From an uncultured Armatimonadia bacterium (GTDB taxonomy: Bacteria > Armatimonadota > Zipacnadia > CAVVLO01), in contig CAVVLO010000002.1 of NCBI GenBank assembly GCA_963749155.1, positions 800,001-864,000 of the forward strand: a DNA stretch of 64,000 nucleotides, read 5' to 3'. Below are positions 1,097 to 19,607 of the stretch, piece after piece (positions within the stretch are counted from its first letter, which is position 1; every line of letters begins with the position of its first letter). The translations under genes and the position numbers were made by a program. Below the pieces are notes generated by a model. The model was given only the letters and a program-made list of their open reading frames with translations, had not been told where the DNA came from and made no database searches.

Positions 1097-1176
1097 CAGC
1101 CCAACCTCCGGTCATCGTGCAAATCAAAGACGCACCGGGGTTCGCTTCGAGAAGGCCGCTCCCTGCCTGCGGCAGG

Positions 1177-2182: not shown

Positions 2183-3267
2183 CAGAGGCTCTCCTCCACA
2201 CCGCGATAATTGTAATGGGCCGCGCAAGCGCCTTCACTCGACACCATACAAGGGCCGACGGGCGAGTCGGGCGTGCAGCCGGTTGCGAACAAACCGCATT
2301 CGGCAGGCTCGATGAGCCCTTTCAACACGTCGCCGCACCGGCAGCCGGCTGGCTCGGATTCGATTTCGGGCAGGAAAGGCGCCACCAGTTCGGTCGCATC
2401 ATGCTCCGAGAACTCCTCCCTCAGCCTGTAGCCGCTGCCTGGCAAGGTGCCCAGGCCTCTCCAGCGAGCCTCGCAAGGCTCGAAGGCTTCTCCAAGCAGC
2501 GCCTGAGCAGCGGGGTTGCCCTCTTCTCGCACGATACGCGGGTATTCGTTGTAGATGCCGGCCTTGCCGTCCACGGTAGCCTTTACGGCTTTGTGTACGC
2601 CCCTCACGAGGTCCAGGGGCTCGAAGCCAGTAATGACGCCGACTTTGCCATATTCCTGCGCCAGGAACCTGTATGGTGGAACTCCAATCAGGGCGCTTAC
2701 ATGACCTGGCAGGAGGAACCCATCCAGAGCGAGTGCCGGGTCAGCGACCAGCAACTCCAGCGCCGGCGGGATGAGCTTGTGCACGCACCAGATGCGGAAG
2801 TTGGCCACCTTCCGGCGCGCCGCCTCGCGCAGGGCGATCACGGTGCCGGGTGCGGTAGTCTCAAAACCGACTCCGAGGAAGACGACAATTGCCTTGGGTG
2901 AGTGCTCTGCGAGTTCGACCGCTTCGAGGGGTGAGTAGACAGGCTTCACCCTTGCCCCGCGCGCCGAGGCCTCGGCAAGGCTCCCCTGGCTGCCAGGCAC
3001 CCGCAACATATCGCCATAAGTGGCGAGTATCACATCAGGGCGCGCCTGGCCCAGCGCGATGAAGGCGTCCAGTTCGCCCTGGGCGGTCACACAGACAGGA
3101 CAGCCTGGCCCCGAGGTGAGTCTGATTTGGCGAGGAAGCAACTGCTTGAGGCCCATCTCGGCGATGGCGGTCGTGTGCGTGCCACAAACCTCCATCAGGC
3201 GGAGGGCGGGTGGGTCAAGCGCCCTGATCTCGCCAAGCAGCTTTTCGATTTCGGCGTGGTCGGTCAT
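2182..3267 (-). CDS. hypD: Hydrogenase maturation protein HypD
   Basis: MEVCGTHT, GPGCPVC, GFETT, PGHVS and GPCMVSSEGAC motifs. Confidence 0.97.
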   Translation of the reverse strand: MTDHAEIEKLLGEIRALDPPALRLMEVCGTHTTAIAEMGLKQLLPRQIRLTSGPGCPVCVTAQGELDAFIALGQARPDVILATYGDMLRVPGSQGSLAEASARGARVKPVYSPLEAVELAEHSPKAIVVFLGVGFETTAPGTVIALREAARRKVANFRIWCVHKLIPPALELLVADPALALDGFLLPGHVSALIGVPPYRFLAQEYGKVGVITGFEPLDLVRGVHKAVKATVDGKAGIYNEYPRIVREEGNPAAQALLGEAFEPCEARWRGLGTLPGSGYRLREEFSEHDATELVAPFLPEIESEPAGCRCGDVLKGLIEPAECGLFATGCTPDSPVGPCMVSSEGACAAHYNYRGVEESL

Positions 3268-3480
3268 CTAGAGTCCCGCTCTCTGGAGCCATTCCTCTCG
3301 CGAGGAGGCGTCCTCTGACTCGACTTTACTGATGGCGATGCCCGCGTGCACAAGCACGAAGTCGCCTACGACCACCGTCGGCAGCAGGTCCATCCGCGCT
3401 TTGCGCCGCACGCCCTGGCGCTCACAGAGGGCTTCCACGCCTTCAAGTTCGACCACTTTCATCGGTATGCCCAGACACAT
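3268..3480 (-). CDS. hypC: Hydrogenase maturation chaperone HypC
   Basis: MCLGIP N-terminus, VLVHAG motif, 70 aa, between hypF and hypD. Confidence 0.97.
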   Translation of the reverse strand: MCLGIPMKVVELEGVEALCERQGVRRKARMDLLPTVVVGDFVLVHAGIAISKVESEDASSREEWLQRAGL

Positions 3481-3481
3481 A

Positions 3482-5737: not shown

Positions 5738-6410
5738 CACCGCTCTGTCCTTCTTCCGCGAGCAAAGCGAATACCCGGTCAGCGAGCCAGTCGGCAAGCT
5801 CAGGCAAGCCTTCACCCGTCCGGCGGAAATCCGGAATATCGCCGCGTTCGGGTTCAAGCGCTGCCAGATCGCCGAAATACTCCTCTTCGTTGAAGCCAAA
5901 AGGCTCGGCCAGATCCCATTTGTTTACCACGACGGCATCCGCCTCGCGAAACATCTGCGGATATTTACGCGGCTTGTCCTCGCCTTCGGGCACACTGCCA
6001 ACCACGAGGCGCAGACGCTCGCCAATCCAGATGGCAGCAGGACATACCAGGTTGCCGACATTCTCGGTGAGCACCAGGTTGAAAGGCTGGTCGGCGAGTT
6101 TCTTGAGCGCAGCCACTACGAGGTGCGGCTCCAGGTGGCAGGCGCCGCCAGTCGTTATCTGGACGATAGGCTTCTCAAGGCCGGCCAGTTTTTCAGCGTC
6201 GGTCGTCGTAGCGATGTCGCCTTCAAGGATTGCAATCTGGAAACGCGACTCGAGCAAAGGCACCAGATTGAGCAGCAGAGTAGTCTTGCCCGCCCCGGGA
6301 GAACTCATCAGGTTGACCATCACGGCCCCGCGCGCGGCAAGCCAGTCGGCCACTGTCCTGGCATCGGCCTGGTTCTTCTCCATTATGTTGCGGACGACTT
6401 TGATAAGCAT
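5724..6410 (-). CDS. hypB: Nickel-insertion GTPase HypB
   Basis: SSPGAGKT P-loop, CHLE, ENVGNLVCPA, NKWD. A short compensated frameshift is likely near 5820-5865. Confidence 0.96.
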   Translation of the reverse strand: MLIKVVRNIMEKNQADARTVADWLAARGAVMVNLMSSPGAGKTTLLLNLVPLLESRFQIAILEGDIATTTDAEKLAGLEKPIVQITTGGACHLEPHLVVAALKKLADQPFNLVLTENVGNLVCPAAIWIGERLRLVVGSVPEGEDKPRKYPQMFREADAVVVNKWDLAEPFGFNEEEYFGDLAALEPERGDIPDFRRTGEGLPELADWLADRVFALLAEEGQSGDESS

Positions 6411-6742
6411 CAGTCTACCTCCAGCTCGACCAACTCGAGGCCCTTGCCAGCCGTTAGCTCAAGCTCCGTCCCCCCACAGACTTCACAGGCGAAAACGCCA
6501 GCTTTGGGCTGGAACTCGGCTCCACATTTGGCGCAGCGACCGGCCAGCTTTTCCAGGACGAACTCCAGACTTGCGCCCTCGGCGAGCGTGCCCTCGGCTA
6601 CCATCGGAAAATAATGCTCGAGGTAATCGGGGCAGAGACCAGCCCATTCGCCGATTTTGACCTTTATTCGGCGGATGCGTCGGCCAGCGCCCTCTTCGAG
6701 CGCGATTCTTACCAGTTCCTGCGTGGCTGGAAATTCATGCAT
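6410..6742 (-). CDS. hypA: Nickel metallochaperone HypA
   Basis: N-terminal MHE, CAKC...CEVC zinc motif, C-terminal GKGLELVELEVD. Confidence 0.95.
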   Translation of the reverse strand: MHEFPATQELVRIALEEGAGRRIRRIKVKIGEWAGLCPDYLEHYFPMVAEGTLAEGASLEFVLEKLAGRCAKCGAEFQPKAGVFACEVCGGTELELTAGKGLELVELEVD

Positions 6743-6751
6743 ATTATAATG

Positions 6752-6788
6752 AAAACAGGGAACCGGCCTGATAAGTGCCGGTTCCCTG
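6752..6788 (-). terminator. Intrinsic terminator-like hairpin after the hydrogenase small-subunit gene
   Basis: Perfect 12-bp stem CAGGGAACCGGC/GCCGGTTCCCTG with a 9-nt loop, followed by TTTT on the minus strand. Confidence 0.65.
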
Positions 6789-6811
6789 CGCAAAAGGTTG
6801 AAAAACCGAGC

Positions 6812-7351
6812 CTAGACGGTCTCGACCTTCTCGTAGATAACCATCCCGTCCTCGTCCTGCTTGAGGTCATCCAGGTGGTAGCGCGGAATCGCCAGCTCGA
6901 GTTGCTTGTATTTGATGGGCGCGGTCTGCTTGTCTACCAGGCCAAGCGCGACGGCGACGCCCCAGACGATGGCTTCTGGCCTCGGCGGGCAGCCGGGGAT
7001 GTAGAAATTCACCGGGATGACCTTGTCCAGCGCGCCGATGACATTGTAGGTATCGTTCCAGATACCGCCACCGCAGGCGCAAGAGCCAATGGCAAAGACC
7101 AACTTGGGCTCGGCCATAGCATCGTAAGCGCGCTTGAGCGACTCGGCAGTCGCGCGCGAGGCAGGCCCCTGGCACAGCATCGCATCAGCGTGGCGAGGCG
7201 AGCCTACCAGCTTGATGCCAAACCGTTCGACGTCGTAGAAAGGCGTAAGCACGTTTACGACTTCGATATCACACCCGTTGCAGCCACCACTATTGGCATG
7301 GTACACCCAGATGGAACGGGCGAAAGCTTTCTTGCAGAGTTCCTTAAGCAT
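6812..7351 (-). CDS. Group 4 [NiFe]-hydrogenase small subunit (HycG/EchC/NuoB-like)
   Basis: GCNGCDIE, SPRHAD, GSCACGGG, IPGCPPRP motifs. Confidence 0.93.
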   Translation of the reverse strand: MLKELCKKAFARSIWVYHANSGGCNGCDIEVVNVLTPFYDVERFGIKLVGSPRHADAMLCQGPASRATAESLKRAYDAMAEPKLVFAIGSCACGGGIWNDTYNVIGALDKVIPVNFYIPGCPPRPEAIVWGVAVALGLVDKQTAPIKYKQLELAIPRYHLDDLKQDEDGMVIYEKVETV

Positions 7352-7371
7352 CTTTCTCTCCCCAGTCCTGC

Positions 7372-7896
7372 CTAGTCAAGCTCGAGTTTGATATCGTCGG
7401 CTGCCTCATCACCCTCGAGGTAGCTCTCGGAGTCATACACGAACAACTCGTTTTCCAGGTCGTCGAAGCGGAAACCCTTCAGCTTGAGCTGCTCGAGCGG
7501 GCTTGGCTCCTTGAAACAGCGCCCACAGCGCTGGCAGGTGCCCATAAAGATCTCGAGCTCCTGGCTGATGTCCCGGATATCATTTGTGGCATTCTGAAAC
7601 TCGTGGCTCATCGTGATGGCGCCCTCGGGACACACGTCAGCACAGCGGCCGCAATAGGTGCAGCGGCGACCGATGTACTTTATGATCCGCTTTTCCTGGC
7701 AAAGATCCAATACCAGGATCTCGCGCGCAGGGCAGTTGTTGGCGCAACCCGCGCACCCGATGCACTTGGAGCCATCGAAGATAGGCCGTCCGCGGAACCG
7801 TTCGGGCACTGGTTCGGCCTTGGCCGGATACGGCAAGGTGACCTTGCCGGCCTTCAGGCAGAAAACTGCTTCTTTGAGCTTGCTAGTAAGCGACAT
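7372..7896 (-). CDS. 2x[4Fe-4S] hydrogenase subunit (HycF/EchF/NuoI-like)
   Basis: TLPYP...RFRG, CIGCAGCANNCP and CTYCGRCADVCP, extra CQRC. Confidence 0.92.
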   Translation of the reverse strand: MSLTSKLKEAVFCLKAGKVTLPYPAKAEPVPERFRGRPIFDGSKCIGCAGCANNCPAREILVLDLCQEKRIIKYIGRRCTYCGRCADVCPEGAITMSHEFQNATNDIRDISQELEIFMGTCQRCGRCFKEPSPLEQLKLKGFRFDDLENELFVYDSESYLEGDEAADDIKLELD

Positions 7897-7913
7897 TCGA
7901 TATCACTCCGCGA

Positions 7914-8849
7914 TTAGTAGCCGAGTACGGCCAGGATGAGGGCGATAAGCGCCACAATAAACAGGAACGCGTAGTACTTGATCGCCTGGTCAATCCTGTA
8001 GCGCGCATGGGTCGCGGCTATCAGCGTTACGAGCAAAGTCAGGCCGAAGATCTTCGCCAAAACGACGAGGGTCCCCAGCGGGAAAGCCAATGAATTGCCC
8101 CAGGGAAGGAACAGGGCCACTACGATAGCACTGTAAAGGAACAACTTGGCCATCTGCGCATACTTGAAGAGGGCCAGCTTCGGACCCGAATACTCGATCA
8201 GGGTGCCTTCCATAAGCTCGGTCTCGGCTTCGGCGATGTCGAAGGGCATACGCCCAACGAAGGCCTGGAAAGCGAAAAGCATTACCACAGCCATCAAGAT
8301 GCCAGCATAAGATATGCTCTCTGCCCCTGCCGCATATACAGCCCCGCCACCCAGCACATCATCCAGCCTGAGGCTGCCTGCGTGCACGGCGCCGATAATG
8401 ACCGAGATTGCCAGCAGTGGCTCCAGGGTCATCATTGCCATCATCTCGCGGCTCATACCTACCAGTGAGTAGGTGGAGCCAGCCGCCAGTGCCGCAAGCA
8501 GGGTCGAAATCCCGCACAGCGTAAGCACATAGATAAGCAGGATGCTGTCGGCCGACAGCCCAAGTGGGGCCGCGGCGCCAATTGGCACGAGCAGCGCCAC
8601 CGTCAGGATGGCTGCAAGCGACAGATACGAGGCGAACCGCTGCATAAACGGTGACTCGCCGCACTCTAGATCTTCTTTCCCCAGCAGCTTCAGCAGGTCG
8701 TAATATGGCTGGGTAATCGGCGGCCCTTGACGAGACTGGACCCGCGCCGTGACCTTGCGCAGCACGCCCTCAAACAGCGGAGCCAGCAGCAGCACAAGCG
8801 CAATATTGACTACGCCGTAACTAAGCAGTTCAAGCACGTTAGCTTCCAT
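7914..8849 (-). CDS. Hydrogenase membrane subunit (HycD/EchB/NuoH-like)
   Basis: RKVTARVQSRQGPP, RMPFDIAEAETEL, EYSG; multiple hydrophobic helices. Confidence 0.94.
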   Translation of the reverse strand: MEANVLELLSYGVVNIALVLLLAPLFEGVLRKVTARVQSRQGPPITQPYYDLLKLLGKEDLECGESPFMQRFASYLSLAAILTVALLVPIGAAAPLGLSADSILLIYVLTLCGISTLLAALAAGSTYSLVGMSREMMAMMTLEPLLAISVIIGAVHAGSLRLDDVLGGGAVYAAGAESISYAGILMAVVMLFAFQAFVGRMPFDIAEAETELMEGTLIEYSGPKLALFKYAQMAKLFLYSAIVVALFLPWGNSLAFPLGTLVVLAKIFGLTLLVTLIAATHARYRIDQAIKYYAFLFIVALIALILAVLGY

Positions 8850-8882
8850 TCGTGAGCACTCCCAACGTATGTCCGTTGCTGG

Positions 8883-10559
8883 CTACTGGGCCGATTCGCG
8901 CACCAGCGCGTACAGCTCTTCCTGCGTGAAAATCCGCTCTTCACCACTGCGGATATCGACAACCTCAAGCCGGTCCGTGCAAGAGAAGCACGGGTCGATA
9001 CTGCCCAGAGAGATGGTCATGTCAGCGATCATCTGATCTTTTATCATCCCGGGCACGCCCTGCAGGTTCTGGTAGGTCGGGGCACGGACACGCCAGCGGC
9101 GCGGCCGGTTATCGTCACCGGTGATTACAAAGTGGTGGGCTTCGCCCCGGGGGGCTTCAACGGCGGACATCCCAAGTCGCCCAGCGGGCAGCTCGGAATC
9201 GATGTCCAGAGTAATCGGGCCATCGGGCATAAGAGCCAGCGACTGGCGGATAATCTTGATGGATTCCAGCACCTCGAGGGCGCGGACAATGATACGGCCC
9301 CAGACATCGGCCGAATCCTGAGTTATTACCTGGAAGTCCACCTTGTCATACGCCGCATACGGGTGATCTACACGATCGTCGATGGCTACGCCAGCCGCGC
9401 GCGCCACGGGGCCAAGCAGGCCCAGCGCTTTGCAGTCGGCAGGGGTAGCCACGCCAACGCCCTTGGTGCGGCGCTGGATGTTACGATCCTTGGCGATCAT
9501 CCCGACGACAGGCGTCCACTCTTTCTCGAGCTTGTCCATCAGCTCAAGGAGCTCGGTCTTCAGTTCGGGCGTGATGTCGAAGCGCACGCCGCCGATTACG
9601 CACAGGGCGTAAGTCTTGCGGTTGCCGCTTATCTTCTCGGAAATCCACATCACAGGCTCGCGGATCCGGAAGCTCTGCATAAACAGAGTGTCGAAGCCCA
9701 GGATATGGCACGCGAGGCCTGCCCAAAGCAGATGGCTGTGAAGACGCTCGATCTCGAGCATAATGGTCCGGATGAACTCGGCCCTTGGTGGCGCCTGGAT
9801 TGCCGCCGCCTGTTCGACAGCCTGGGCATATGCCACATTGTGGACGCAGCCGCAGATGCCACAGATGCGCTCTGCCAGCATCGGGATCTCGTTGTAGGTC
9901 AGGACCGAATCAGCGAGCTTCTCCACTCCGCGATGGACCATAAAGCCGCGGTATTCGCAGCCCTTCACGACCTCGCCCTCTACGAACAGGCGGAAGTGGC
10001 TCGGTTCGTCCAGGGTCGGGTGGAAAGGTCCGAACGGGACGACGACAGTGCCTTCTGGCGGATTATCGAAGTCGTAGGTCTTCGACGCGTCATAGGTATC
10101 CGGCACATTGTCCCAGCGCAAATCATGGCGCAGCGGATGAACATCCTCTGGCCAGCCATCGGGCAGCACCAGGCGCTTGGGGTTCGGATGCCCCTCGGGC
10201 ACGATACCGACCAGATCGCGGAACTCGCGCTCCGACCAGTTGGCGGCGGGAATAATATCCGCGATGCTGTCAATGACAGGATTCTCGCCATCGAGCAGCG
10301 TCAGGACGCTGATGAGGACATGGTCCTTGTCACAGGCGAAATCATGGGCGACCATAAACTTGCCCTGGGTCTCGCGCTCATCACAGCCGATGCCGACGCA
10401 ATAGCGAGCGTCCAGGTCCACGAAAAGGAACTGGCACACCTCGCGCACGGCTTTGGGCTCGATGTAGACGAACAAGCGGCCGTCGGCGGGGATGTCGGCC
10501 CGCTGGATCTTCAGGCCGAACCTCTCCTCAAGCTGCTTTTGGATGTCACGTGCTGTCAT
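8883..10559 (-). CDS. Group 4 [NiFe]-hydrogenase large subunit (HycE-like, NuoC-NuoD fusion)
   Basis: NuoC-like ERE..DLVG..GHP domain. L1 motif ERICGICGCVH and L2 motif DPCFSCTDR, followed by a cleavable C-terminal extension. Confidence 0.95.
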   Translation of the reverse strand: MTARDIQKQLEERFGLKIQRADIPADGRLFVYIEPKAVREVCQFLFVDLDARYCVGIGCDERETQGKFMVAHDFACDKDHVLISVLTLLDGENPVIDSIADIIPAANWSEREFRDLVGIVPEGHPNPKRLVLPDGWPEDVHPLRHDLRWDNVPDTYDASKTYDFDNPPEGTVVVPFGPFHPTLDEPSHFRLFVEGEVVKGCEYRGFMVHRGVEKLADSVLTYNEIPMLAERICGICGCVHNVAYAQAVEQAAAIQAPPRAEFIRTIMLEIERLHSHLLWAGLACHILGFDTLFMQSFRIREPVMWISEKISGNRKTYALCVIGGVRFDITPELKTELLELMDKLEKEWTPVVGMIAKDRNIQRRTKGVGVATPADCKALGLLGPVARAAGVAIDDRVDHPYAAYDKVDFQVITQDSADVWGRIIVRALEVLESIKIIRQSLALMPDGPITLDIDSELPAGRLGMSAVEAPRGEAHHFVITGDDNRPRRWRVRAPTYQNLQGVPGMIKDQMIADMTISLGSIDPCFSCTDRLEVVDIRSGEERIFTQEELYALVRESAQ

Positions 10560-10597
10560 AAGAGAGCACCTCTTCAGGCGCGTTGCGCCGCTAATAA

Positions 10598-12565
10598 CTA
10601 CTTGCTTTCGGGCTTCTCGTCCGACTTGTCGGCTGGCCCGTGAGCCTGGTGCTTGGGAGCGGCACCGACCCAGGTGAAATACTTCTTGAACTCGCCGTAA
10701 AGGTTGTGCGCGTTGTAGCGATACTCATCAGCATGGGTTACATAACCGCATAGCCAGGGAGTAGTAACGCGCCGTACCGCGCCCCCAACACGCGAGATAC
10801 CATAAACCAGCAGCATCAGGACCAGCACCACACCCGCCAGTACAAGAGGCGTGAAGGCTGCCATCTGCGGAAGGCCAACCCCCAGCAAGGTGTCGCCGGT
10901 GGGTACAGAGCTGGAAGTTATGAGCCTCTCGGCCAGGCCCTGGCGGCTTGCATTCATCGCGGCAAGGAACAGGCCGTAAGCCGCAGCGGGAGCGATACCG
11001 AGCAGCACGCAAAGCGCCCCAAGCAGTGACTGAGGTACCAGCATCGTCCAGTCGCCTTCCAGTTGGCCCTTCTCCTCGGCTTTGGCGTTTACCAGGTCAC
11101 TGCGACGCGACAGGAAAGTCACGCCGAAGAACTTCATAAACGAGGCCAGGGTCAGTGCGCTGGTAAGGATGGCGAACAGGCCGCATACCGCCAGATACTT
11201 GGCATCAGACGAGCCCAGGATGGTAGAGGCATAGATGGTCCACTTGCTGGCGAACCCATTGAAAAGCGGCACGCCGGCGATGCTGAAGGAAGCGATCAGC
11301 GTGAGCAACGCGGTCGCGGGCATCAGCTTGATCAGACCACCCAGCTTGTTCATATCCTGGGTATCGGTCGCATACATTACCGAGCCAGCGTTCAGGAAGA
11401 GCAGGCCCTTGAAGCACGCGTGGTTCACAGTGTGGAAAAGCGCGCCCAGCAGGCCGAAGCTGGCCAGTGTTTGCACTATCAGGTTGCTTTCGCCAGGCGC
11501 ATAAAGGGCGATTGCAGAGCCGATACCGAGCAGGATATAGCCAATCTGACCGATGCTGTGGAAGGCCAGCAGTCGCTTGGTTTGCTCCTGCTTGAGCGCC
11601 TGCATCGTGCCCACGAACAGAGTAATTGTACCGAGCACGGCGATAAGCATACCCCACTGGGCAGCGGGGAAGCTGTCAACTGCATCCTTCGGGATCATCC
11701 AAAGGAAGGTCCGCAGGATGCCGTAGATGCCAGTCTTGATCATTACGCCCGAAAGCAGCGCGCTAACAGGCGCGGGAGCCGCGGGGTGAGCGTCAGGCAG
11801 CCACCACTGGCCGAAGGGCCACATACCCGCCTTGATGCCGAAACCAACAAGCATCAGCATCAGTGCGCCCAGTACGATGCCTCCGCCCTGATTTTGGAGC
11901 ATCCAGCCCAGGTTGTGGGCGATGGCTTCGAAATCAAACTTGCCGATTGTCTCCGCGCCGAGGGTAATCTTGCTGCCAGTATCGCCCAGCATATAAGCCC
12001 CGGCCATAACCAGCAGCACCGAGAGTTCCATAAAGAACAGATATTTGTTGGCGGCGGCGACGTTGGACTTGACTTTGTTCTCGTACCGGATGAGCGCATA
12101 ACTGGTCAGCGTCATCAGTTGCCAGAAAAGGCAGAAATACAGCATCAGGTCAGTGGTTGTGACTATCCCGTACATACCCGCGATGAAGAGCAGGAAGTAA
12201 GGATAATACCGGCCGGCGCCATATTCCTTATAATGTTCCATATACTTGATCGAGAAGAGCGCCGCCATCACCGCGACAACCGCGATAATGCCGATAAACA
12301 GACCGCTCAGCCCGTCTATATACAGGCGCAGTGCCGTCCCGTTGACCAGTCCGTCAAAGAAGGTGCGAGCCTCACCCGCCTGTCCGCTGACCAGTACTCG
12401 GCCGACGCCGACAAGCGCCAGGAAGCTCGAGGCGGCAGTCGCCAGAAAAGCGAGCCAGCCCGCAATGCGCTTGCTACCAGAAACGAGCAAGGTAAGCACC
12501 GCGCCAGCCACCAGTATCCCAAAGGCATACAGCATGCAATCAATAGCTGTCATCGTAGCGTGCAC
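10598..12565 (-). CDS. Antiporter-like membrane subunit (HycC/HyfB/EchA/NuoL-like)
   Basis: GFGIKAG..P...WLPDAHPAAPAPVSALLSGVMIK, KRLLAFHSI, GVPLFNGFASKW; highly hydrophobic. Confidence 0.94.
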   Translation of the reverse strand: MHATMTAIDCMLYAFGILVAGAVLTLLVSGSKRIAGWLAFLATAASSFLALVGVGRVLVSGQAGEARTFFDGLVNGTALRLYIDGLSGLFIGIIAVVAVMAALFSIKYMEHYKEYGAGRYYPYFLLFIAGMYGIVTTTDLMLYFCLFWQLMTLTSYALIRYENKVKSNVAAANKYLFFMELSVLLVMAGAYMLGDTGSKITLGAETIGKFDFEAIAHNLGWMLQNQGGGIVLGALMLMLVGFGIKAGMWPFGQWWLPDAHPAAPAPVSALLSGVMIKTGIYGILRTFLWMIPKDAVDSFPAAQWGMLIAVLGTITLFVGTMQALKQEQTKRLLAFHSIGQIGYILLGIGSAIALYAPGESNLIVQTLASFGLLGALFHTVNHACFKGLLFLNAGSVMYATDTQDMNKLGGLIKLMPATALLTLIASFSIAGVPLFNGFASKWTIYASTILGSSDAKYLAVCGLFAILTSALTLASFMKFFGVTFLSRRSDLVNAKAEEKGQLEGDWTMLVPQSLLGALCVLLGIAPAAAYGLFLAAMNASRQGLAERLITSSSVPTGDTLLGVGLPQMAAFTPLVLAGVVLVLMLLVYGISRVGGAVRRVTTPWLCGYVTHADEYRYNAHNLYGEFKKYFTWVGAAPKHQAHGPADKSDEKPESK

Positions 12566-12577
12566 CCCAGACTTCCG

Positions 12578-13060
12578 TTACGCCGTTTGGCTAAGAATCT
12601 TGTCCAGTAACTCCGCCAGAAGGCGGACGGTCTCTTCGATCACGGGGCTAAGCCCCGGTCCCTTCAAAGAGGCTGGCTGGGCTCCCAGTAAACTGACTTT
12701 CGGCCCCTCATCCGCCTCGATAAGCCTGGCCAGTGTCCCCAGCGACAGTTTATGGGTCGAAAACTGGGGAAACCGGCTCACCAGTTGCTCGGCGGAGAGT
12801 ACCACCACTGCCCCTGGCGCGGCTCCAACTTCAACAGCATCAAGCAGTATTACCGCATCCCAGCCGCCGGCTCGTACCTGGCCCGTATGGGCCTCTGGCG
12901 TCGTACCTGCCAGCACCACTTCGGCAAGGCCGCGCTGCTCGAGCGCTTCTCCCAGGCTCGGTCCGAACCCATCGTCACCGTGGTCCGGATTCCCGATTGC
13001 AATAAAGCAGACTCGCCCGGCCAGCCTGCTCCTGAGCTCGACATCGAGTGCCTGGCTCAA
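12578..13060 (-). CDS. Hydrogenase maturation endopeptidase (HycI-like)
   Basis: IGNPDHGDDGFG, TPE, LLDAVEVGAAPG, FSTH motifs. Confidence 0.9.
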   Translation of the reverse strand: MSQALDVELRSRLAGRVCFIAIGNPDHGDDGFGPSLGEALEQRGLAEVVLAGTTPEAHTGQVRAGGWDAVILLDAVEVGAAPGAVVVLSAEQLVSRFPQFSTHKLSLGTLARLIEADEGPKVSLLGAQPASLKGPGLSPVIEETVRLLAELLDKILSQTA

Positions 13061-13911
13061 ATCTCCTCGCCGAGTTTCTGGATCTGTTCAAGAGTGTAAA
13101 CAGGTCCATCTACGCAGACATATGAGACGCCGATACAGCAATGGCCACACTTGCCGATACCGCACTTCATATAGCGCTCGAGCGTCGAGACGATGTGCTT
13201 GTCCTCGAAGCCCATCTCTTTCAGGTCCTTGAGCACGAAGCGGAACATAATGGGCGGGCCGCAGACGAAGGCCGTAGTGTTGTCGACCGGCACATCCACG
13301 TTGTCCAGCTTGAACAGCGAACCGACGACGCCTACGTTGCCGCTCCAGCCCTCATCGCCCCGGTCAACGGTCAGCAAGCACTCCAGCTTGCCTTCCTGCT
13401 GCCAGCGCGCCAGGTCCTCGGTATACATTAAGTCTTTGGGCGTACGCGCCCCGTAGAAGACCTGCACCTTGTCGAACTTGTCGCGGTTGTCCAGCGCGTA
13501 CACGATGCAAGAGCGAAGCGGGATAAGCCCGATACCACCGGCCACGAACACCAGGTTGCGGCCATAGTACTCGCTCATATCGAAGCCGTTGCCGTAAGGG
13601 CCGCGCACCGCGAACTTGTCGCCAGGCTTTAGCTGATGCAGCGCGTGAGAAACCGCCCCCACGTCTCGCACCGTGAAGAAGAGCTTCTCCTCGGAGGGAC
13701 TCGGCGGTAGCGAGGCCGGAAATTCCCCTGCGCCAAACACGTTTACCTGGGCGAACTGCCCGGGCTTGAAATTGCTGTGGAAATATTCCTGCTCTGCCGG
13801 ATCCTCATAATGCCAGTAGAAGGTCTTTACCTCTGCGATATCGTCCTGCACGGCATCCAGGATTGCTAGCTTGGGCAGATAGGCATTCTCGTCACGTTGC
13901 GGCTGGCTCAT
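13057..13911 (-). CDS. FAD/NAD(P)-binding [2Fe-2S] subunit (AsrB / sulfhydrogenase gamma HydG-like)
   Basis: PGQF, RGPYGNGF, AGGIGLIP, CGPPIM, MKCGIGKCGHC...CVDGPV. Confidence 0.92.
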   Translation of the reverse strand: MSQPQRDENAYLPKLAILDAVQDDIAEVKTFYWHYEDPAEQEYFHSNFKPGQFAQVNVFGAGEFPASLPPSPSEEKLFFTVRDVGAVSHALHQLKPGDKFAVRGPYGNGFDMSEYYGRNLVFVAGGIGLIPLRSCIVYALDNRDKFDKVQVFYGARTPKDLMYTEDLARWQQEGKLECLLTVDRGDEGWSGNVGVVGSLFKLDNVDVPVDNTTAFVCGPPIMFRFVLKDLKEMGFEDKHIVSTLERYMKCGIGKCGHCCIGVSYVCVDGPVYTLEQIQKLGEEI

Positions 13912-14986
13912 TTTCGACGCTCCCCGCGGTTTCTCTCCGAATGATCTCGACTACATTGGGCATACCTATATCGCCATGACAGACGGCGATGCAGCGCCCG
14001 CAGCCCACGCACGCTACCGACAGCTCTCTTTGCAGGAAATAATGGGCCAGCTTCCTGAAGAAACGCCGGTTGCGCCTGTCATGCACGGCCTTGCGCGGGT
14101 TGTGGCCACCGGCCATCCGCGTAAAACCTGACAGCGCGCACGCATCCCAGATGCGCACCCGCTCTACCTTGCCCTCGCCCACGTTGCGATCGCTGACAGT
14201 GAAGCAGGTGCAGGTCGGGCAGACATAGCTGCAGCCGCCGCACTCGAGGCACCGATTGCCGATCTCTTCCCAGGTATCTTCGCTGATGCCGCCCTTGGTG
14301 ATATAGCGAGTGGCAGCCGAATACCAGCTTGTCGGCACCTTGAAATGCTTGCGCGCCTCTTCGAGAAGGTCATGGCGCTTTTTCACGTGTTCGGGGGTCG
14401 CTTTCGTGAACATGGGATTCTCGAAAAGCTTCTCGCCCTTCTCGCTCCCTGCGACGACCAGCACCTCTTCGCCCAAATCCATAAGTTGCAGGTCGAAGTG
14501 GTCGCGAGCAGCCGGCCCGGTGTCGGCGCAAACGCAGAAACAGTCTCTGTCGATGTCTACGCCAACTTCGGTGCAGACCACATTGACCAGGAAAAGGTTC
14601 TCCCTGAGCTTCTTGTAGTACAAATCGTTGAAATCCCGCCCCAGGTAGAAACGATCAAGGTGATAGATACCCGCCACATCGCATGACCGGATGCCGAATA
14701 TGGCGCGCTTCGGCTCGTCGTAGGTGGGGGTAATCTCCACGTTGCCCTCGGCCATACGCATTTCCATCAGCCGCTGGATATGCGGCAGGACGTAGCGCTT
14801 GGCGGGATAATAAGGATTACGCACGTGCAGCTTCAGGTCGGCCTTGTTGGCTTCGGTGACCGGCTCGTAAGCGCTGTCGCGACCGCGACCCTCGAAGGGG
14901 GCGACGACCTCGTAGCCCTGCTCCTCGAGCAGGTCAACGATCTTGAACACGTCGCTCTTGGCTACGATTCTAGCGCGCATCGTCAA
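13892..14986 (-). CDS. Poly-[4Fe-4S] subunit (AsrA / sulfhydrogenase beta HydB-like)
   Basis: FGIRSCD, CFC, CLECGGCSYVCPTCTC, WDAC, CVGCGRCIAVC. Confidence 0.9.
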   Translation of the reverse strand: MTMRARIVAKSDVFKIVDLLEEQGYEVVAPFEGRGRDSAYEPVTEANKADLKLHVRNPYYPAKRYVLPHIQRLMEMRMAEGNVEITPTYDEPKRAIFGIRSCDVAGIYHLDRFYLGRDFNDLYYKKLRENLFLVNVVCTEVGVDIDRDCFCVCADTGPAARDHFDLQLMDLGEEVLVVAGSEKGEKLFENPMFTKATPEHVKKRHDLLEEARKHFKVPTSWYSAATRYITKGGISEDTWEEIGNRCLECGGCSYVCPTCTCFTVSDRNVGEGKVERVRIWDACALSGFTRMAGGHNPRKAVHDRRNRRFFRKLAHYFLQRELSVACVGCGRCIAVCHGDIGMPNVVEIIRRETAGSVENEPAAT

Positions 14987-17016
14987 ACCATCTCCAGTTT
15001 CACGCAGACGGGGCCGCGCAGCGTTGTCTCGTTGCAGGGCTTGCCCCCGAGCAACTGCTGCGTGACTTCGCCCAGGAAATACGGCACGAAGATCATCCCG
15101 CGTTTGACCTCACTGGTAAGACGCACCGCCACCTGGGCCGAACCGTCGGCCGAGGTCAACTGTACCTTCTGCCCATCGCGTACTTTGAGGTCGCGAGCAT
15201 CGTCCGGATTAAGCTCCACGAAGCCCTCGGGATAATCCAGCAAGAGCATCCGGTATTCGCGTTTCAAGGTTTCGCTGTGCAAAATGAGCGCGTTGCGATG
15301 CCAGTAGTAAAGCGAATGACCGAACATTAGCGAGAAGGGGAAATCTTCGGTCGCGCAGGGTATAGCTCCTGGCCGCGAGACCGCAGAAAACTTGAAAAGC
15401 TTGCCCTGAATGCCATCCTCATACAAGAAGCGCGTGCCATTGGGCTTGCTCTTTGTAACAGGCCACTGCCTGCCATAATCGGAGACCAGGTTATCGTAAT
15501 TCGCCGCTTCATAGGCAGGCACAGCCTGGCCTATCTCGTTCATAATGGCCGCCGAGTTTGCATACGTCCAGTTTGCGCCGAGTTTGTTTGCGACTTCTTC
15601 GATCTGCTTCCAGGCAGTGATGGTACCCTCCAGAGGATCCTTAACCTGGGTGGCAAGCTGGATGCGCCGCTCGGTGCTGGTGAAAGTTACGGTTTCTTCG
15701 CCGAAGGCGTTCAGCGGGAGGATGACATCCGCAAGTTCGGCGGTTTCGGTCATAAAGAGCTGCTGCATTACGATGAAGTCGAGTTTGGCGAGGGCTGCTT
15801 TGGCATTGCAGTAGACGCCTGTGATGACTGCGTCATGGCGGTCCAGCCACAGTGCTTTCAGCTTGTCGCCAGCCAGCACGGTAAGCATCGCGCGCGCTGT
15901 TGCGCCTTCTGTCTCGGGCAGTTTGCAGCCCCAGAGGCTTTCCAGCCTGGAACGATCTTCGGCCGACTCGACCTTGCCATAACCAGGCAGCAGGTTGGGC
16001 AGCATACCCATATCGCAGATACCCTGCAGGTTGTTTTGCTCTGTCAGTGACATAACCCCGGCGCCTTCTTTGCCGATATTTCCAGTCAGCAAAGCCAGGT
16101 TGGCGATTGACTCTACGGAGCTGGCTCCGCGCGCCTCGACGCCGGTCGAATAGAGGATCATCGCTTTGCCAGCCGAGGCGAAAGCTACGGCGGCCTGCTC
16201 GATGAGCTGGGCGTCCACGCCGCACTGCTCTGCGGCATAAAGCACATCATAGGCATTGATGTTTTCGCGGAAGGCGTCCCAGTCCTGACAATGGGCCTTG
16301 ATGAAGTCCAGGTCCATAAGCCCGCGGTCTATGATGACCTTGGCCATTGCGCCATAGAGCAGCGTGTCCGAGCCGGGGCGCAGTTGCAGGAAGTAGTCGG
16401 CATGCTCTGCGATGCGATGCTTGCGCGGGTCAATGACGATAACCTTGGCCCCCGCGAGTCTGGCTCTGATTACCCAGCCCCCGATTGTGGGAAGCTGCTT
16501 GGCCAGGTCTACACCGTTGATGAGGATGACGTCGGTCTTGGCGATATCGGCGATAGAGTTCGTCGAGGCGGGTATCCCGAGTTGATCCTGCAGCACTTCG
16601 ATGCTGTTATGCCTGTGGATGCCAGTCCCATGGTCGACGTTATTGGTGCCGATTATGGTCCTGCCCAGCTTCTGCAGCAGATAGGTCTCCTCATTGGAGC
16701 AGCGACCAGAGTTCAGGAAGCCGATGGCGTCGGGCCCATACTGGCTCTTGATCTGGCTCAGGCGCTCGGCAATGTAGCTGTAAGCTTCATCCCAGCTAAC
16801 CTGCTCGAACTTGCCTTCCCGCTTGATAAGCGGGTACCTGAGTCGATCTTGAGCGCTGGCTACTTCGTGCACGTTCCAGCCGCGGACACAAATCCTGCCC
16901 TCGTTGGCGGGGTGCGACATACTGGGATAGGCTCCGGTTACGTCGTTGCCCTGGGTCTCGAGGTAGATGCCGCAGCCCACACCACAGAACGTGCAGGTGG
17001 TTAACTTGTGGGCCAT
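14983..17016 (-). CDS. FdhF/FdhA-like molybdopterin oxidoreductase family protein lacking formate dehydrogenase catalytic residues
   Basis: CTFCGVGC...C N-terminal [4Fe-4S] motif, QNNLQG..DMG, TFTSTERRIQ, C-terminal molybdopterin-dinucleotide domain. The active-site segment reads NNVDHGTGIHRH instead of NNVDxCARxC/UH. Confidence 0.88.
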   Translation of the reverse strand: MAHKLTTCTFCGVGCGIYLETQGNDVTGAYPSMSHPANEGRICVRGWNVHEVASAQDRLRYPLIKREGKFEQVSWDEAYSYIAERLSQIKSQYGPDAIGFLNSGRCSNEETYLLQKLGRTIIGTNNVDHGTGIHRHNSIEVLQDQLGIPASTNSIADIAKTDVILINGVDLAKQLPTIGGWVIRARLAGAKVIVIDPRKHRIAEHADYFLQLRPGSDTLLYGAMAKVIIDRGLMDLDFIKAHCQDWDAFRENINAYDVLYAAEQCGVDAQLIEQAAVAFASAGKAMILYSTGVEARGASSVESIANLALLTGNIGKEGAGVMSLTEQNNLQGICDMGMLPNLLPGYGKVESAEDRSRLESLWGCKLPETEGATARAMLTVLAGDKLKALWLDRHDAVITGVYCNAKAALAKLDFIVMQQLFMTETAELADVILPLNAFGEETVTFTSTERRIQLATQVKDPLEGTITAWKQIEEVANKLGANWTYANSAAIMNEIGQAVPAYEAANYDNLVSDYGRQWPVTKSKPNGTRFLYEDGIQGKLFKFSAVSRPGAIPCATEDFPFSLMFGHSLYYWHRNALILHSETLKREYRMLLLDYPEGFVELNPDDARDLKVRDGQKVQLTSADGSAQVAVRLTSEVKRGMIFVPYFLGEVTQQLLGGKPCNETTLRGPVCVKLEMV

Positions 17017-17110
17017 ATCAGACGCCCCTTTCGAAGGCACTTGTATGCCTTTCGGTGGAATCGCGTCGGGTGGGCGTGGAAGACCGCGCTTACGCTAACC
17101 CGAACGGCAA

Positions 17111-17138
17111 ATTATACACGCCTCACAACCGGTGTCAA
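17111..17138 (-). promoter_or_regulatory. Sigma70-type promoter of the hydrogenase operon
   Basis: Minus strand reads TTGACA-16 nt-TATAAT, about 95 nt upstream of the FdhF-like start. Confidence 0.8.
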
Positions 17139-17260
17139 CCGATTTCGAGGCGTTGGGAGAAGGTTTCGCCGGGCCTTTTCCATCCCCTGCCCACCCCAGG
17201 CAGGGAGAATCACCCAAAGAGCGAACTACTTTTTTATCTATCACTTCAGGATGAGGCGCG

Positions 17261-19607
17261 ATGGCTGACAATCCTTCCTCCCGAAAATTTAGTGAAAAAA
17301 TCGGACTGGCGCTTGGCGCGCAGGGCAAAGCAATTTGGGAGCCCTTACGTCCAGTGCTTGCAAATTACTGCCTGGCCCGGACCTCGGCCGAAGTTTTTTT
17401 CGAGGACGAGCTCGAACTGGAAACTGACCGTATCTTCTGTTGCGTACCTGAGGAATATAAGGTTCTGCGCGCCGAGTCGCCTGTAAGCTCACTGCCCGAG
17501 CCGCCGGCTCCAGGTGAGTATCTCCTCTGGGCTGATAATTTGCCCGAAGGCTTTATGGGACTCCTGTGCGCAAGCGAAGTGGTCGGCGCCCGCACCGCCC
17601 TGGCCCGGTTTGCCGATTCGCTCATATTCCCAGGCAGTCTGACCCAGCACTATATCCGGGTTCCCGACCAGGAAGTCCGCGGCCTTTCGCGCCCGCTTGT
17701 TTTTATTGTTGACTGGCTCGACACTCATGAAGCTTTCACGGGCTGGACGAAGGAAGACTGGCGGCTTTTCCTTTATACGAAGCTGCAGGAAGGCGCGGAT
17801 GAGCTTATCCTCAAACCTTTCAATCTTTCTGAATGGGACACTGGCGCCCCGCTACTCGGACTCGAGCCGACTTCAACCAGTGAGCGCGTCCAGTGGAAGT
17901 CTCACGCGCAAAAACTTGATGACCTGTTCGAACTTGCTGGCGAACTTGCCCTGCCACTTGGCTTCCGCATTGACCCGCAACTTGCCTTCCCACTTGCCCT
18001 GCCGCCTTCGATGGCCCGCTCTCGGGCCGATGTCGCTTGCCTTGCGAATCCCGCGGAGCACAAAGCGGCTCTTGCCTCCTGGCAAGCCAGTCTGGTGAAG
18101 TGGGCTTCACTCTCTACGCTGCTTTTCGCGCCAGGGCTTGAACCTCATTGCCAGTGTCGAGACTGCGCCAGCAACTGGATACGGCTTGGACTGGAGCTTG
18201 CAAGCGAACTCATCGAAGCCTTTGGTGGTCTGCCAGGTGTTAGCCTGGCGCTTACCGTGGAAGGACTTGGCTGGGAGGAGCAAAACTACGTCTACAAGCT
18301 GATTATCGAGGGCCGGCTGGCCTGGTGCAAGCGCCTGCTAGTTCCCTACACCTGGGCAATGCCCCAGGATTTGCTGGAGCAGCTTGCCGAGAAAGTCGAA
18401 GTCATCACTTCGGTGGATACTACCGATCCGACCGGTCACCAGCTCGCAGCGCCGCCCTTGCTTGGAGAATACCTGGCTTCGATGCCGCCCAGCACCAGCG
18501 TGCCACGCCCGGAGGCCTGCGCCAGGCTGGAGGAGCATGTCAAACTGACAGGTCGCGTCGCACTGCGCTCCAGCCGGGTGGGCGAGCAGTTCAATCAATT
18601 TGCTCTCGGGCGGGCGCTCAAATGGGCTGAGCTTTCAACCAACGAGCTTGCCTCCTCCTTCTGCAATCTGCACCTGACCAAGTTCGACACGAACAGCTTC
18701 CGCGACAAAGTGATTGACGTCGAACGTGTTGCGGTTGGGCTTGTTCCTCCCAGCGGCCTGCACGAATCCGAAGCGGATTCGCTGAAGACTGACTTGCTGA
18801 AGACCTCCAGCGCCTATGAAGTTGTCAGTTGGCAGGGCTCCCTGCTGTTGTGGACGGTAGCGGGAGCCTTGAAAACCTCGGCAGGCCTTCACGAAATGCG
18901 GGAAGAACTTGCCACTCTGGCTCACACGCTTGCGACTGCCACTCTGCCCGAACAGGGCAGGACGCTGGATTCTGCTTATGATGAACTGCACAAACTGGCC
19001 CGCCGGAAATCCTTGCTTGGCTCGGAGCGGCTTAAGTCCTTGCTGCCTTTTGGCAGTATCAAGAAACTTAGTTTCGACCTTTTCGCGACCGAGCTTAACC
19101 GTGATTCGCTGGGCCTTGAGCAACTGGCAGAGGAAGCGCGCGCAATTGAATCAAAAGCCGGTAGCGCCGAGGCGATTACTCTACTTGTCAGCAGGTTGCG
19201 AGTTTATACCGGGATTGGCCCAGGAATTGTGCCCGGTGGGCTTGTAGGGGTCGCATCGGTTGAGGGAGGCACGCCCCTGCTGCTGCCCACACCAGGGGTA
19301 CCGGTCGCTGCGCCACTCTTCAACTGCACCGCAAGCGCCTGGGGCCAGCCAGTCCGGTGCCGGCTGACAAGTAACCAAAGGCCGCGCCTCCCACCTCGAA
19401 ATCGCCTTGCCCTGGGATGCCCGACAGCCTGCTCTGAAGCTCTCCGCCGATGGCGCGTTGCTTGCCGAGGTTCGCCTGGCGCCTGACAGGCCCATCTGGC
19501 GCCAGTTTGAAGTGACGCCTCAGTCCAGCGAACTGCTGATTGAGTTTGCCCCTGTTGAGGCAGTCTATTGCCCGTGTTTTTGTTCCATATCGCTGATCTC
19601 CAACTAA
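17261..19607 (+). CDS. Hypothetical protein, possibly a divergent glycoside-hydrolase-like fold (frameshift near 19385)
   Basis: Long ORF 17261..19486 with a plausible continuation in 19407..19607; PHCQCRDC motif; no confident family. Confidence 0.6.

Follow-up and report, generated by a model that had tools for sequence, protein, structure and literature searches.

An operon for a putative NAD(P)H-linked, membrane-bound [NiFe] hydrogenase with a relic formate dehydrogenase-like subunit in an uncultured Armatimonadia bacterium

The operon described here lies entirely on the minus strand of a 64,000-nucleotide (nt) stretch of DNA from an uncultured Armatimonadia bacterium (assembly GCA_963749155.1, contig CAVVLO010000002.1, positions 800,001 to 864,000), which is called the window below and in whose positions all coordinates are given. 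Nine open reading frames (ORFs) run head to tail from 17016 to 6812 and, by Pfam and NCBIfam domain assignment, encode in this order an FdhF-like, a HydB/AsrA-like, a HydG/AsrB-like, a HycI, a HyfB/HycC-like, a HycE, a HycD, a HycF and a HycG protein. Judged from sequence, it is moderately likely that they form an eight-subunit membrane-bound [NiFe] hydrogenase (plus HycI and the hyp maturases) in which the HydB/HydG pair is the input module and the FdhF-like subunit is a relic, so that the complex would probably link hydrogen to NAD(P)H and not to formate. The loss of function in the FdhF-like subunit is strongly indicated, and the use of NAD(P)H is plausible.

The operon is a new case of an architecture that has been noticed from sequence and never studied at the bench, and which is already in print (Matheus Carnevali et al., 2019; Takano et al., 2026), together with the related Hun complex (Glass et al., 2021). 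What is new is the argument drawn from the absence of molybdenum cofactor (Moco) synthesis, a simple genomic criterion that separates an enzyme with two substrates and a relic subunit, which it favours, from the published proposal of three substrates and bifurcation; cofactor-biosynthesis genes are not used as an argument in the available parts of those three papers.

FdhF-like subunit and molybdenum cofactor

The FdhF-like protein aligns from end to end with solved formate dehydrogenases (9t1s_L, 8.3e-127; HDCR FdhF 7qv7_S, 1.1e-120; E. coli FdhH 1aa6_A, 5.8e-101), and its best family match is still Fdh-alpha, at a TIGR01591 score of 593.7 bits that falls under the cut-off of 666.25. In these alignments H134 and R135 occupy the positions of the catalytic selenocysteine (Sec) or cysteine and of the histidine that follows it, while T325 and E326 take those of the Arg-Gly pair in the motif ...LRGQNNVQG....

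The extent of these substitutions was established in a family scan of one genome per species with the FdhF-like family alignment, in which the best 80 of 574 confirmed relatives were kept and 68 of the 80 proved to be family members, with 51–67% identity. The residue census covers 188 sequences, namely the query, 119 database homologues and the 68 sequences cut from the family loci; the last two sources overlap in origin and the counts are not independent. At the Mo-ligand position cysteine occurs in none of them (Tyr in 159, His in 14, Phe in 9, Ser in 2 and gaps in 4), and the position after it is variable (Cys 86, Arg 50, Ser 27, Thr 6, Gly 5, Ala 3, His 3, Asn 2, Val 2). The active-site arginine is likewise missing throughout (Thr 141, Ala 34, Ser 6, Cys 3, Asn 3, Gly 1), the residue that follows it is Glu in 184 of the 188, and the equivalent of Lys44 is Arg in 183. 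The four cysteines of the [4Fe-4S] cluster are present in 181–183 sequences, the remainder being mostly alignment gaps. Ten more distant FdhFs from the same scan, taken as an outgroup, retain Cys-His in 10/10 and Arg-Gly in 9/10. The FdhF-like protein is also the least conserved of the soluble redox subunits, with a mean identity to the query of 56% versus 66–74% for HydB, HydG, HycE, HycF and HycG; HycD stands at 64%, the antiporter-like subunit at 52% and HycI at 45%.

The genome of the window, whose 7 contigs add up to 4.17 Mb, is 100% complete as judged by marker genes, and its contamination is put at 5.87%. Searches with hidden Markov models for MoaA_C (PF06463), MoeA_N (PF03453), MoaC (PF01967) and MoaE (PF02391) produced no match in it; as a positive control, each of the four families was found in 11 of 14 control genomes. 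The sole PF00384 match in this genome is the FdhF-like gene itself. The census was extended to the genomes behind 50 of the 68 family loci (the longer loci were chosen, and completeness figures are not reported for these genomes). Among these 50 carriers MoaC is absent in 19, MoeA_N in 17 and MoaA_C in 22, and all three are jointly without a match in 14; MoaE is absent in 14/14 of the latter and present in 5/5 comparison carriers. By record title, the 14 marker-free carriers belong to Verrucomicrobiota, Lentisphaerota, Chthonomonadales, Acidobacteria and Fibrobacteria. Where the markers are present they often lie on separate contigs (in genome G071, for example, on C4, C5, C7 and C6), and the loss of one contig therefore does not explain their joint absence. 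The PF00384 matches of the 14 marker-free genomes are the FdhF-like gene and, in most, a short C-terminal match that is also seen in Moco-positive carriers and is probably NuoG.

The Mo and W cofactors are made by one shared pathway. It follows from the missing markers that in these organisms the FdhF-like subunit can carry no pterin cofactor. The preliminary description of this DNA, made by a model from its letters and ORFs, had called the FdhF-like protein non-catalytic in appearance, and both the family-wide loss of the catalytic residues and the missing Moco markers, in the genome of the window and in 14 of 50 other carriers, bear this out. That the subunit is non-catalytic and free of cofactor is thus well supported, and we hold it to be very likely. 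A cysteine at position 135 was considered as the mark of cofactor-using members or as a hidden Mo ligand, and was ruled out, given that 8 of the 15 genomes in which both MoaC and MoeA_N are missing have it. As a second, independent case of a formate dehydrogenase that has been fossilised as a scaffold, the family offers a point of comparison that bears on NuoG and the origin of the N-module of complex I.

Operon layout, input module and hydrogenase core

The features of the operon, from its promoter to the end of the adjoining hyp genes, are the following:

17111..17138, minus strand: sigma-70-type promoter-like site TTGACA-16-TATAAT, 12/12 consensus matches
14983..17016, minus strand: FdhF-like molybdopterin-fold protein, 677 amino acids (Pfam Molybdop_Fe4S4, Molybdopterin, Molydop_binding)
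13892..14980, minus strand: HydB/AsrA-like multi-[4Fe-4S] subunit, sulfhydrogenase beta homologue (Fer4_22 domain; SH-I beta match)
13057..13911, minus strand: HydG/AsrB-like FAD/NAD(P)-binding [2Fe-2S] subunit, sulfhydrogenase gamma homologue (NAD_binding_1, DHODB_Fe-S_bind)
12578..13060, minus strand: HycI-type hydrogenase maturation endopeptidase (Pfam HycI 1.4e-13; TIGR00072 88.4 bits, above cut-off)
10598..12565, minus strand: antiporter-like membrane subunit, HyfB/MbhH-like (NF005086, HyfB, 388 bits)
8883..10559, minus strand: HycE-like [NiFe] large subunit fused to a NuoC-like domain, with C-terminal extension (7z0s_E match)
7914..8849, minus strand: HycD/NuoH-like membrane anchor (Pfam NADHdh 9.8e-60)
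7372..7896, minus strand: HycF/NuoI-like Fe-S subunit with 12 invariant cysteines (7z0s_F match, 2.6e-19)
6812..7351, minus strand: HycG/NuoB-like small subunit (Pfam Oxidored_q6 8.7e-30; NF005012 137.5 bits, above cut-off)
6410-6793, minus strand: hypA (Pfam HypA)
5724-6410, minus strand: hypB (Pfam cobW/HypB)
3482-5899 (ORF), minus strand: hypF (Pfam HypF domains)
3268-3480, minus strand: hypC (Pfam HupF_HypC)
2182-3267, minus strand: hypD (Pfam HypD)
1124-2227, minus strand: hypE (Pfam AIRS/AIRS_C)

The genes are tightly packed. A gap of 2 nt separates the FdhF-like from the HydB-like gene, whose real start is the ATG at 14980 (family start MRARI); the HydB-like and HydG-like ORFs overlap by 20 nt, the HydG-like and HycI genes share TTGA, and the other gaps measure 12–38 nt. 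The promoter-like site lies about 95 nt 5' of the ATG at 17016 and is the sole perfect match within 900-17500. An Rfam search of the 5' leader found no family at threshold, its best result being a chance-level match (E 0.49), and a riboswitch or other RNA at this place was dropped on that ground. The hyp set follows directly 3' of hycG on the same strand down to 1124, and the cluster therefore exceeds 6812-17016. The preliminary description had listed nine packed genes in this order behind one consensus promoter, and both points are confirmed here. Its subunit labels also agree with the domains, except that the protein it named HycC scores best as HyfB and MbhH. It had noted the lack of a HycB-type subunit as well, and indeed no such gene was found in the operon by ORF list and Pfam; the genome's single Fer4_11 protein is encoded on another contig in a glutamate-synthase-like cluster, between a glutamate-synthase-domain gene and a gene for a pyridine-nucleotide-disulphide oxidoreductase.

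The two proteins encoded after the FdhF-like subunit had been read as AsrA/AsrB subunits of the NAD(P)H type, and they turn out to be genuine, full-length homologues of HydB and HydG in which the motifs for NAD(P), FAD and Fe-S clusters are conserved. For both, the closest solved relatives come from sulfhydrogenase I (SH-I) of P. furiosus (group 3b; 9nez/9nf0): the HydB-like protein matches the beta subunit 9nez_B over residues 10-342 (2.8e-37), and the HydG-like protein matches the gamma subunit 9nez_C (1.9e-56), which oxidises NADPH. Alignments of 28 sequences show that every cysteine motif of the HydB-like protein is invariant, as are GGIGxIPLRS, CGPP and the [2Fe-2S] cysteines C250/C255/C258/C266 of the HydG-like protein. 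The Fe-S, FAD and NAD(P) motifs of SH-I are thus kept; unlike SH-I, which is soluble, has the composition alpha-beta-gamma-delta and builds on large and small subunits of group 3, the pair of the window joins a NuoD/HycE-like group 4 membrane core. With these invariant nucleotide and flavin motifs and a solved relative that oxidises NADPH, the entry of NAD(P)H through HydG and HydB is the simplest reading and appears quite likely. An assignment to sulfite reductase (AsrABC) was rejected: no AsrC-like ORF is present in the operon, and the pair reaches 154 bits for TIGR02910 against a cut-off of 323 and 196 for TIGR02911 against 289. Complex prediction of HycF and HycG with the HydB-like partner, supplied as alignments, gave scores of 0.20 and 0.21 versus a mark of 0.32, which, without controls, speaks neither for nor against a contact.

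A stand-alone triad of FdhF, HydB-like and HydG-like genes was seen in Pseudomonadales (loci L082, L084 and L088-L092, from Pseudomonas, Stutzerimonas and Geopseudomonas, at about 10001-14000 in each), with the catalytic Cys-His-Arg intact and about 30% identity to the proteins of the window. Its flanking genes are unrelated (P-type ATPase, CBS protein, PhaC). The triad probably represents a soluble formate dehydrogenase that is linked to NAD(P) and has a composition not studied before, and its existence shows that these three proteins can form a module without a hydrogenase.

The hydrogenase core resembles that of formate hydrogenlyase 1 (FHL-1) of E. coli, FdhF-HycBCDEFG (7z0s/7z0t; Steinhilper et al., 2022, PMC9474812), which, as far as the available text goes, shares with it the HycE, HycF, HycG and HycD homologues, a fused NuoC-NuoD large subunit with a C-terminal tail, HycI, and an FdhF-fold subunit with one [4Fe-4S] cluster. 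It differs from FHL-1 in that HycB, the four-cluster ferredoxin that connects FdhF with HycF, is missing, the FdhF-like subunit is without Sec/Cys-His-Arg and the HydB/HydG pair has been added. The best solved relative of the HycE-like subunit is E. coli HycE (7z0s_E, 8.2e-127), and its Ni-binding motifs are RICGICGCVH (L1) and DPCFSCTDR (L2), the latter followed by a tail of 28 residues. In E. coli, HycI removes such a C-terminal tail. Intact Ni-binding motifs, a HycI-type tail, hycI and the full hyp set are all present. Across the family, the CxxC of L1 was found in 43 loci by regular expression and in 7 of 8 others on re-inspection (50 in total; L027 reads out of frame), and that of L2 in 49. 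Selenocysteine variants of HycE, like those of Takano et al. (2026), were looked for and none was found, all of these L1 and L2 motifs being of the Cys type. Membership in group 4f (Ehf) was considered and dropped on the strength of published descriptions, so far as these were available, according to which 4f clusters are Ech-like with six or seven genes and some are without Ni-binding cysteines, unlike the intact motifs of the window.

The HycF subunit seems to have been rebuilt. Besides two ferredoxin motifs, an alignment of 29 sequences shows an invariant C66 and an invariant C121-x2-C124-x2-C127, of which C121 and C124 align with C117 and C120 of E. coli HycF. The E. coli protein uses C117, C120, C155 and C158 to coordinate one metal ion next to its interface with FdhF (PMC9474812, available text), and in the window this Cys4 site is replaced by C66 and CxxCxxC. 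A CxxCxxC motif with a remote cysteine is the classical [4Fe-4S] pattern, from which we infer that HycF probably holds a third cluster (C66, C121, C124, C127) that may make up for the missing HycB.

The antiporter-like subunit scores 388 bits as HyfB (NF005086) versus 165 as HycC, and its best solved match is P. furiosus MbhH (6cfw_H, 3.5e-56). Transmembrane (TM) positions were assigned by alignment to MbhH, and residue roles were taken from the available text of the FHL structure paper (PMC9474812). Among 28 sequences, the TM7 lysine is present in 27, the His/His/Lys of TM11 in 28 and the TM12 lysine in 28. According to the same source, the TM7 and TM12 positions of E. coli HycC are occupied by Leu and Glu, and the lysines of the HyfB/MbhH-like subunit set it apart from FHL-1. 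With a conserved membrane arm and pump-type lysines on one side, and a TM5 glutamine that this arrangement leaves unexplained on the other, the prospects of ion coupling are evenly balanced, as far as residues can tell.

Proposed mechanism and competing explanations

In the NAD(P)H-linked hydrogenase proposed here, electrons would pass from NAD(P)H at HydG to FAD, to the [2Fe-2S] cluster of HydG and the [4Fe-4S] clusters of HydB, and from there through the HycF clusters and the proximal cluster of HycG to the Ni-Fe site of HycE, and the membrane arm formed by HycD and the HyfB-like subunit would tie turnover to an ion gradient. The FdhF-like protein would be a relic free of Mo and W, with only its [4Fe-4S] cluster, and could act as a scaffold, or its cluster could be a side branch or a relay. 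Two topologies can be drawn: in one, which agrees with the AlphaFold models of related clusters in Takano et al. (2026), HydB would sit on HycF and the FdhF-like cluster would be a side branch; in the other, that cluster would be the relay. The standard potentials of NAD(P)H and H2 are about -320 and -414 mV, respectively, so that H2 evolution from NAD(P)H is uphill and needs low H2 or an inward ion flow as its drive. In an anaerobic fermenter the likely direction would be H2 evolution from NAD(P)H, aided by inward ion flow; the sequence permits equally the reverse, in which H2 would reduce NAD(P)+ with ion export.

These elements suggest a comparison with complex I. Its NuoG subunit (Nqo3/NDUFS1) has a cofactor-free domain derived from formate dehydrogenase, with at most the [4Fe-4S] cluster of that enzyme (N7), beside a flavoprotein input for NAD(P)H, and cluster A1 of FdhF superposes on N7 of Nqo3 (PMC9474812, available text). 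Unlike complex I, the operon of the window encodes neither NuoE nor NuoF, nor an N-terminal [FeFe]-hydrogenase-like domain, and its flavoprotein is of the FNR/PyrK-type HydG family; the comparison may be regarded as a fair analogy and not as membership. That the complex resembles a complex I working in reverse, which would use an ion gradient for the interconversion of NAD(P)H and H2 and whose input module would have arisen by a route parallel to that of the N-module, with a formate dehydrogenase that gave up its cofactor and turned into a scaffold next to a flavoprotein, as happened with NuoG, is a tentative proposal, somewhat on the doubtful side.

Should the enzyme use NAD(P)H, models of formate and H2 flux in soils, peat and sediments would change. 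HydDB labels classes 4a, 4b and 4f as formate-linked, and genome-resolved work on soil, peat and sediment routinely interprets such clusters as formate hydrogenlyases. If the gradient-linked interconversion of NAD(P)H and H2 is true, the label "formate hydrogenlyase" would name the wrong substrate in hundreds of soil, peat, sediment and groundwater genomes, fermenters that rely on flavin-based confurcation or on low H2 in syntrophy would have a third route by which to dispose of NAD(P)H as H2, and group 4 would have a new mode of coupling, with NAD(P)H in place of ferredoxin, formate or CO.

Several observations weigh against the account given here. In the membrane arm, the TM5 glutamate, which is otherwise strictly conserved in antiporter-like subunits, has been replaced by Gln in all 28 family sequences, and canonical pumping is not assured. 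In the input module, the HydB-like and HydG-like proteins score under the NCBIfam cut-offs for sulfhydrogenase and Asr subunits, and NADH, NADPH and ferredoxin are not distinguishable as partners from sequence. As for the relic subunit, 29 of the 50 carriers hold both MoaC and MoeA_N, and the cofactor could be loaded there; Moco genes are sometimes linked, though in many carriers they lie on different contigs; completeness of the 50 genomes is not reported; and the marker-free genome G057 has a second full-length PF00384 protein. The FdhF-like protein is also strongly constrained: E326, N328-Q331 and C334-G337, near the former active site, are invariant in the family alignment, and a ligand-binding role could have been retained. 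In the genome of the window, the PFL-like glycyl-radical family has 15 matches, spread over at least 8 loci (several contigs; L098-L105), and formate may be produced. A biochemical study of any such complex was not found in the literature.

The best-surviving alternative, which we consider unlikely, is a ferredoxin-dependent hydrogenase of the Ech/Mbh type, in which the HydB/HydG-like pair or the FdhF-like protein would dock reduced ferredoxin and NAD(P)H would not be the donor. The characterised ion-pumping group 4 hydrogenases (Ech, Mbh) use ferredoxin (HydDB table), which makes H2 evolution exergonic and fits a pumping membrane arm. A precedent is found in the Hun supercomplex, a Ni-Fe hydrogenase-Na+/H+ antiporter whose AsrA/AsrB-like subunits were read as ferredoxin acceptors (Glass et al., 2021, bioRxiv 10.1101/536078). 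According to the available parts of that paper, Hun is similar to the operon of the window in that the AsrA/AsrB-like HunAB lead a group 4 hydrogenase operon and in that some metagenome-assembled genomes have a molybdopterin-domain protein between HunB and HunC; it differs in its 16 subunits, its link to Mrp, its assignment to group 4g, its CGIC-CYCC Ni motif and its reading as ferredoxin-fed. A comparable case is the "enigmatic" group 4 region of Saganbacteria RX5A, where, in the available text, an unclassifiable single-cluster molybdopterin oxidoreductase with asrA-like and asrB-like genes adjoins a membrane-bound [NiFe] hydrogenase; it differs in having a CooF-like protein and Mrp antiporter-like subunits, and its authors, who did not settle on a function, suggested an Mbh-like role (Matheus Carnevali et al., 2019, PMC6349859). 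What speaks for NAD(P)H over ferredoxin is the HydG-like subunit, whose GGIGxIPLRS and CGPP motifs, constant in 28/28 sequences, are hard to explain without the binding of a nicotinamide nucleotide, and whose closest solved relative is the NADPH-oxidising SH-I gamma.

Less likely still is the three-armed enzyme of Takano et al. (2026; PMC13582414), which would bifurcate or confurcate electrons among H+/H2, NADP+/NADPH and a third substrate at the Fdh-like subunit. In the parts of this paper available, a "group 4b" clade is described in which about half of the Fdhs are without Cys/Sec and co-occur with SHI-gamma/SHI-beta homologues, the clusters may perform bifurcation or confurcation with an unidentified third substrate, and the Fe-S network of AlphaFold models has branches that reach the large subunit, the homologue of SHI-gamma and the Fdh-like protein. 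These clusters match the operon of the window in combining an Fdh-like protein without the Mo-ligand Cys/Sec, homologues of SH-I beta and gamma, and a membrane-bound group 4 hydrogenase, and they occur in overlapping phyla (Methylomirabilota, Armatimonadota, Acidobacteriota). The typical Takano cluster, of HydDB class 4b, adds HyfE-like and HyfC-like subunits, several antiporter subunits and several ferredoxin subunits (12 genes in the modelled example); unlike it, the operon of the window encodes a single antiporter-like subunit and lacks both a HyfE-like gene and a separate ferredoxin gene, and its family is of the Cys type wherever the Ni-binding motifs were seen, whereas Takano et al. describe both [NiFe] and [NiFeSe] clusters. 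None of 12 contig accessions of family loci is listed in the available parts of their Table S1. The good conservation of the FdhF-like protein, with invariant residues around the old active site, would suit a third substrate. In the genome of the window and in 14 of 50 other carriers, the markers without a match leave no Mo or W centre for it, and the ligand position of the FdhF-like protein holds no conserved metal-ligand residue. Nor are flavoproteins of the HydG type known to act as bifurcating sites.

An ordinary formate hydrogenlyase, the usual annotation, in which the FdhF-like subunit would oxidise formate and HycE would make H2, would agree with the Fdh-alpha family match, with the HycE/D/F/G-like core that has E. 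coli FHL as its best solved match, with the PFL-like genes and with peat Acidobacteria clusters labelled fdhF + hyf that were published as FHL, and is nevertheless highly improbable in view of the absence of the catalytic Sec/Cys, His and Arg from 188/188 sequences, the Moco markers without a match in the genome, the TIGR01591 score under its cut-off and the HycB gene that was not found.

Distribution, genome context and neighbouring genes

The preliminary description had proposed a search for the same nine-gene order in other genomes, and the order proves to be conserved across phyla. Synteny was followed by tblastn with the nine proteins of the window. Among the 44 loci that extend 10.3 kb or more from the start of the FdhF-like gene, all nine genes are present in 40 and the exact order in 39, while 23 of the 24 shorter loci are consistent prefixes. 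As to individual departures, a second antiporter gene pushes hycG off the locus in L023 and L027, L062 is without the antiporter gene, L063 is truncated, and L068 has an extra, distant AsrA/AsrB-like pair upstream. The second antiporter-like gene, located between the first and hycE, was seen in L021, L023, L026, L027 and L038.

All 68 family loci come from metagenome-assembled genomes, and their record labels cover about 11 phyla: Verrucomicrobiota, Lentisphaerota, Omnitrophota, Planctomycetota, NC10/Methylomirabilales, Acidobacteriota, Nitrospirota, Thermodesulfobacteriota, Geobacteraceae, Chthonomonadales, Fibrobacteria and Baltobacteraceae. Within the lineage of the window itself the operon is uncommon: an FdhF-like orthologue was found in 0 of 40 relatives of the same class, where the best matches are FdsA-type proteins of about 900 amino acids with 38% identity, and in 2 of 300 other genomes sampled from the phylum of the window, with 56–57% identity. 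Copies from the same phylum are thus no closer than those from other phyla, and the operon has likely spread by lateral transfer. Near-identical or related DNA occurs in 20 runs from 13 studies of sediment, wastewater, digester, sludge, freshwater, soil and cave metagenomes. In two RNA libraries of one study, contigs with 90–99% identity cover 24 and 20 of the 30 bins of 6500-17400, and in the study that has the best DNA match, an RNA library reaches 5/30 bins with short pieces; these contigs, which may include DNA and derive from relatives, are a weak hint that the operon is transcribed.

In the genome of the window, PF00374 (NiFeSe_Hases) matches only the large subunit of the operon, and no [FeFe] hydrogenase and no heme-copper oxidase was found. 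The window also encodes rhamnosidase-like and polysaccharide-lyase-like proteins. From its gene content the organism looks like an anaerobic sugar fermenter, for which the operon complex would be the only route to and from H2. The set of PFL-like genes is unusually large for a 4.2-Mb genome. A second NuoD-type gene is present without a NuoG-type PF00384 match anywhere in the genome, and the only Complex1_51K protein is encoded about 550 kb from it (C2:1254603-1255340; C2:702943-703365), which suggests a complex I-like enzyme without the NuoEFG module, and perhaps an RnfC.

Upstream of the operon, and divergent from its promoter, an ORF of 741 amino acids (17261-19486, plus strand) has no Pfam match, and no counterpart of it adjoins the operon in the 80 fetched loci. 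Farther on, aspartyl-tRNA synthetase (20776-22562, minus strand) is encoded by two ORFs that overlap by 4 nt: the catalytic domain is divided between them, its first half lying with the anticodon-binding domain in the ORF at 21579-22562 and its second half with the GAD domain in the one at 20776-21582, an arrangement that may reflect a frameshift, an assembly error or a truly split gene.

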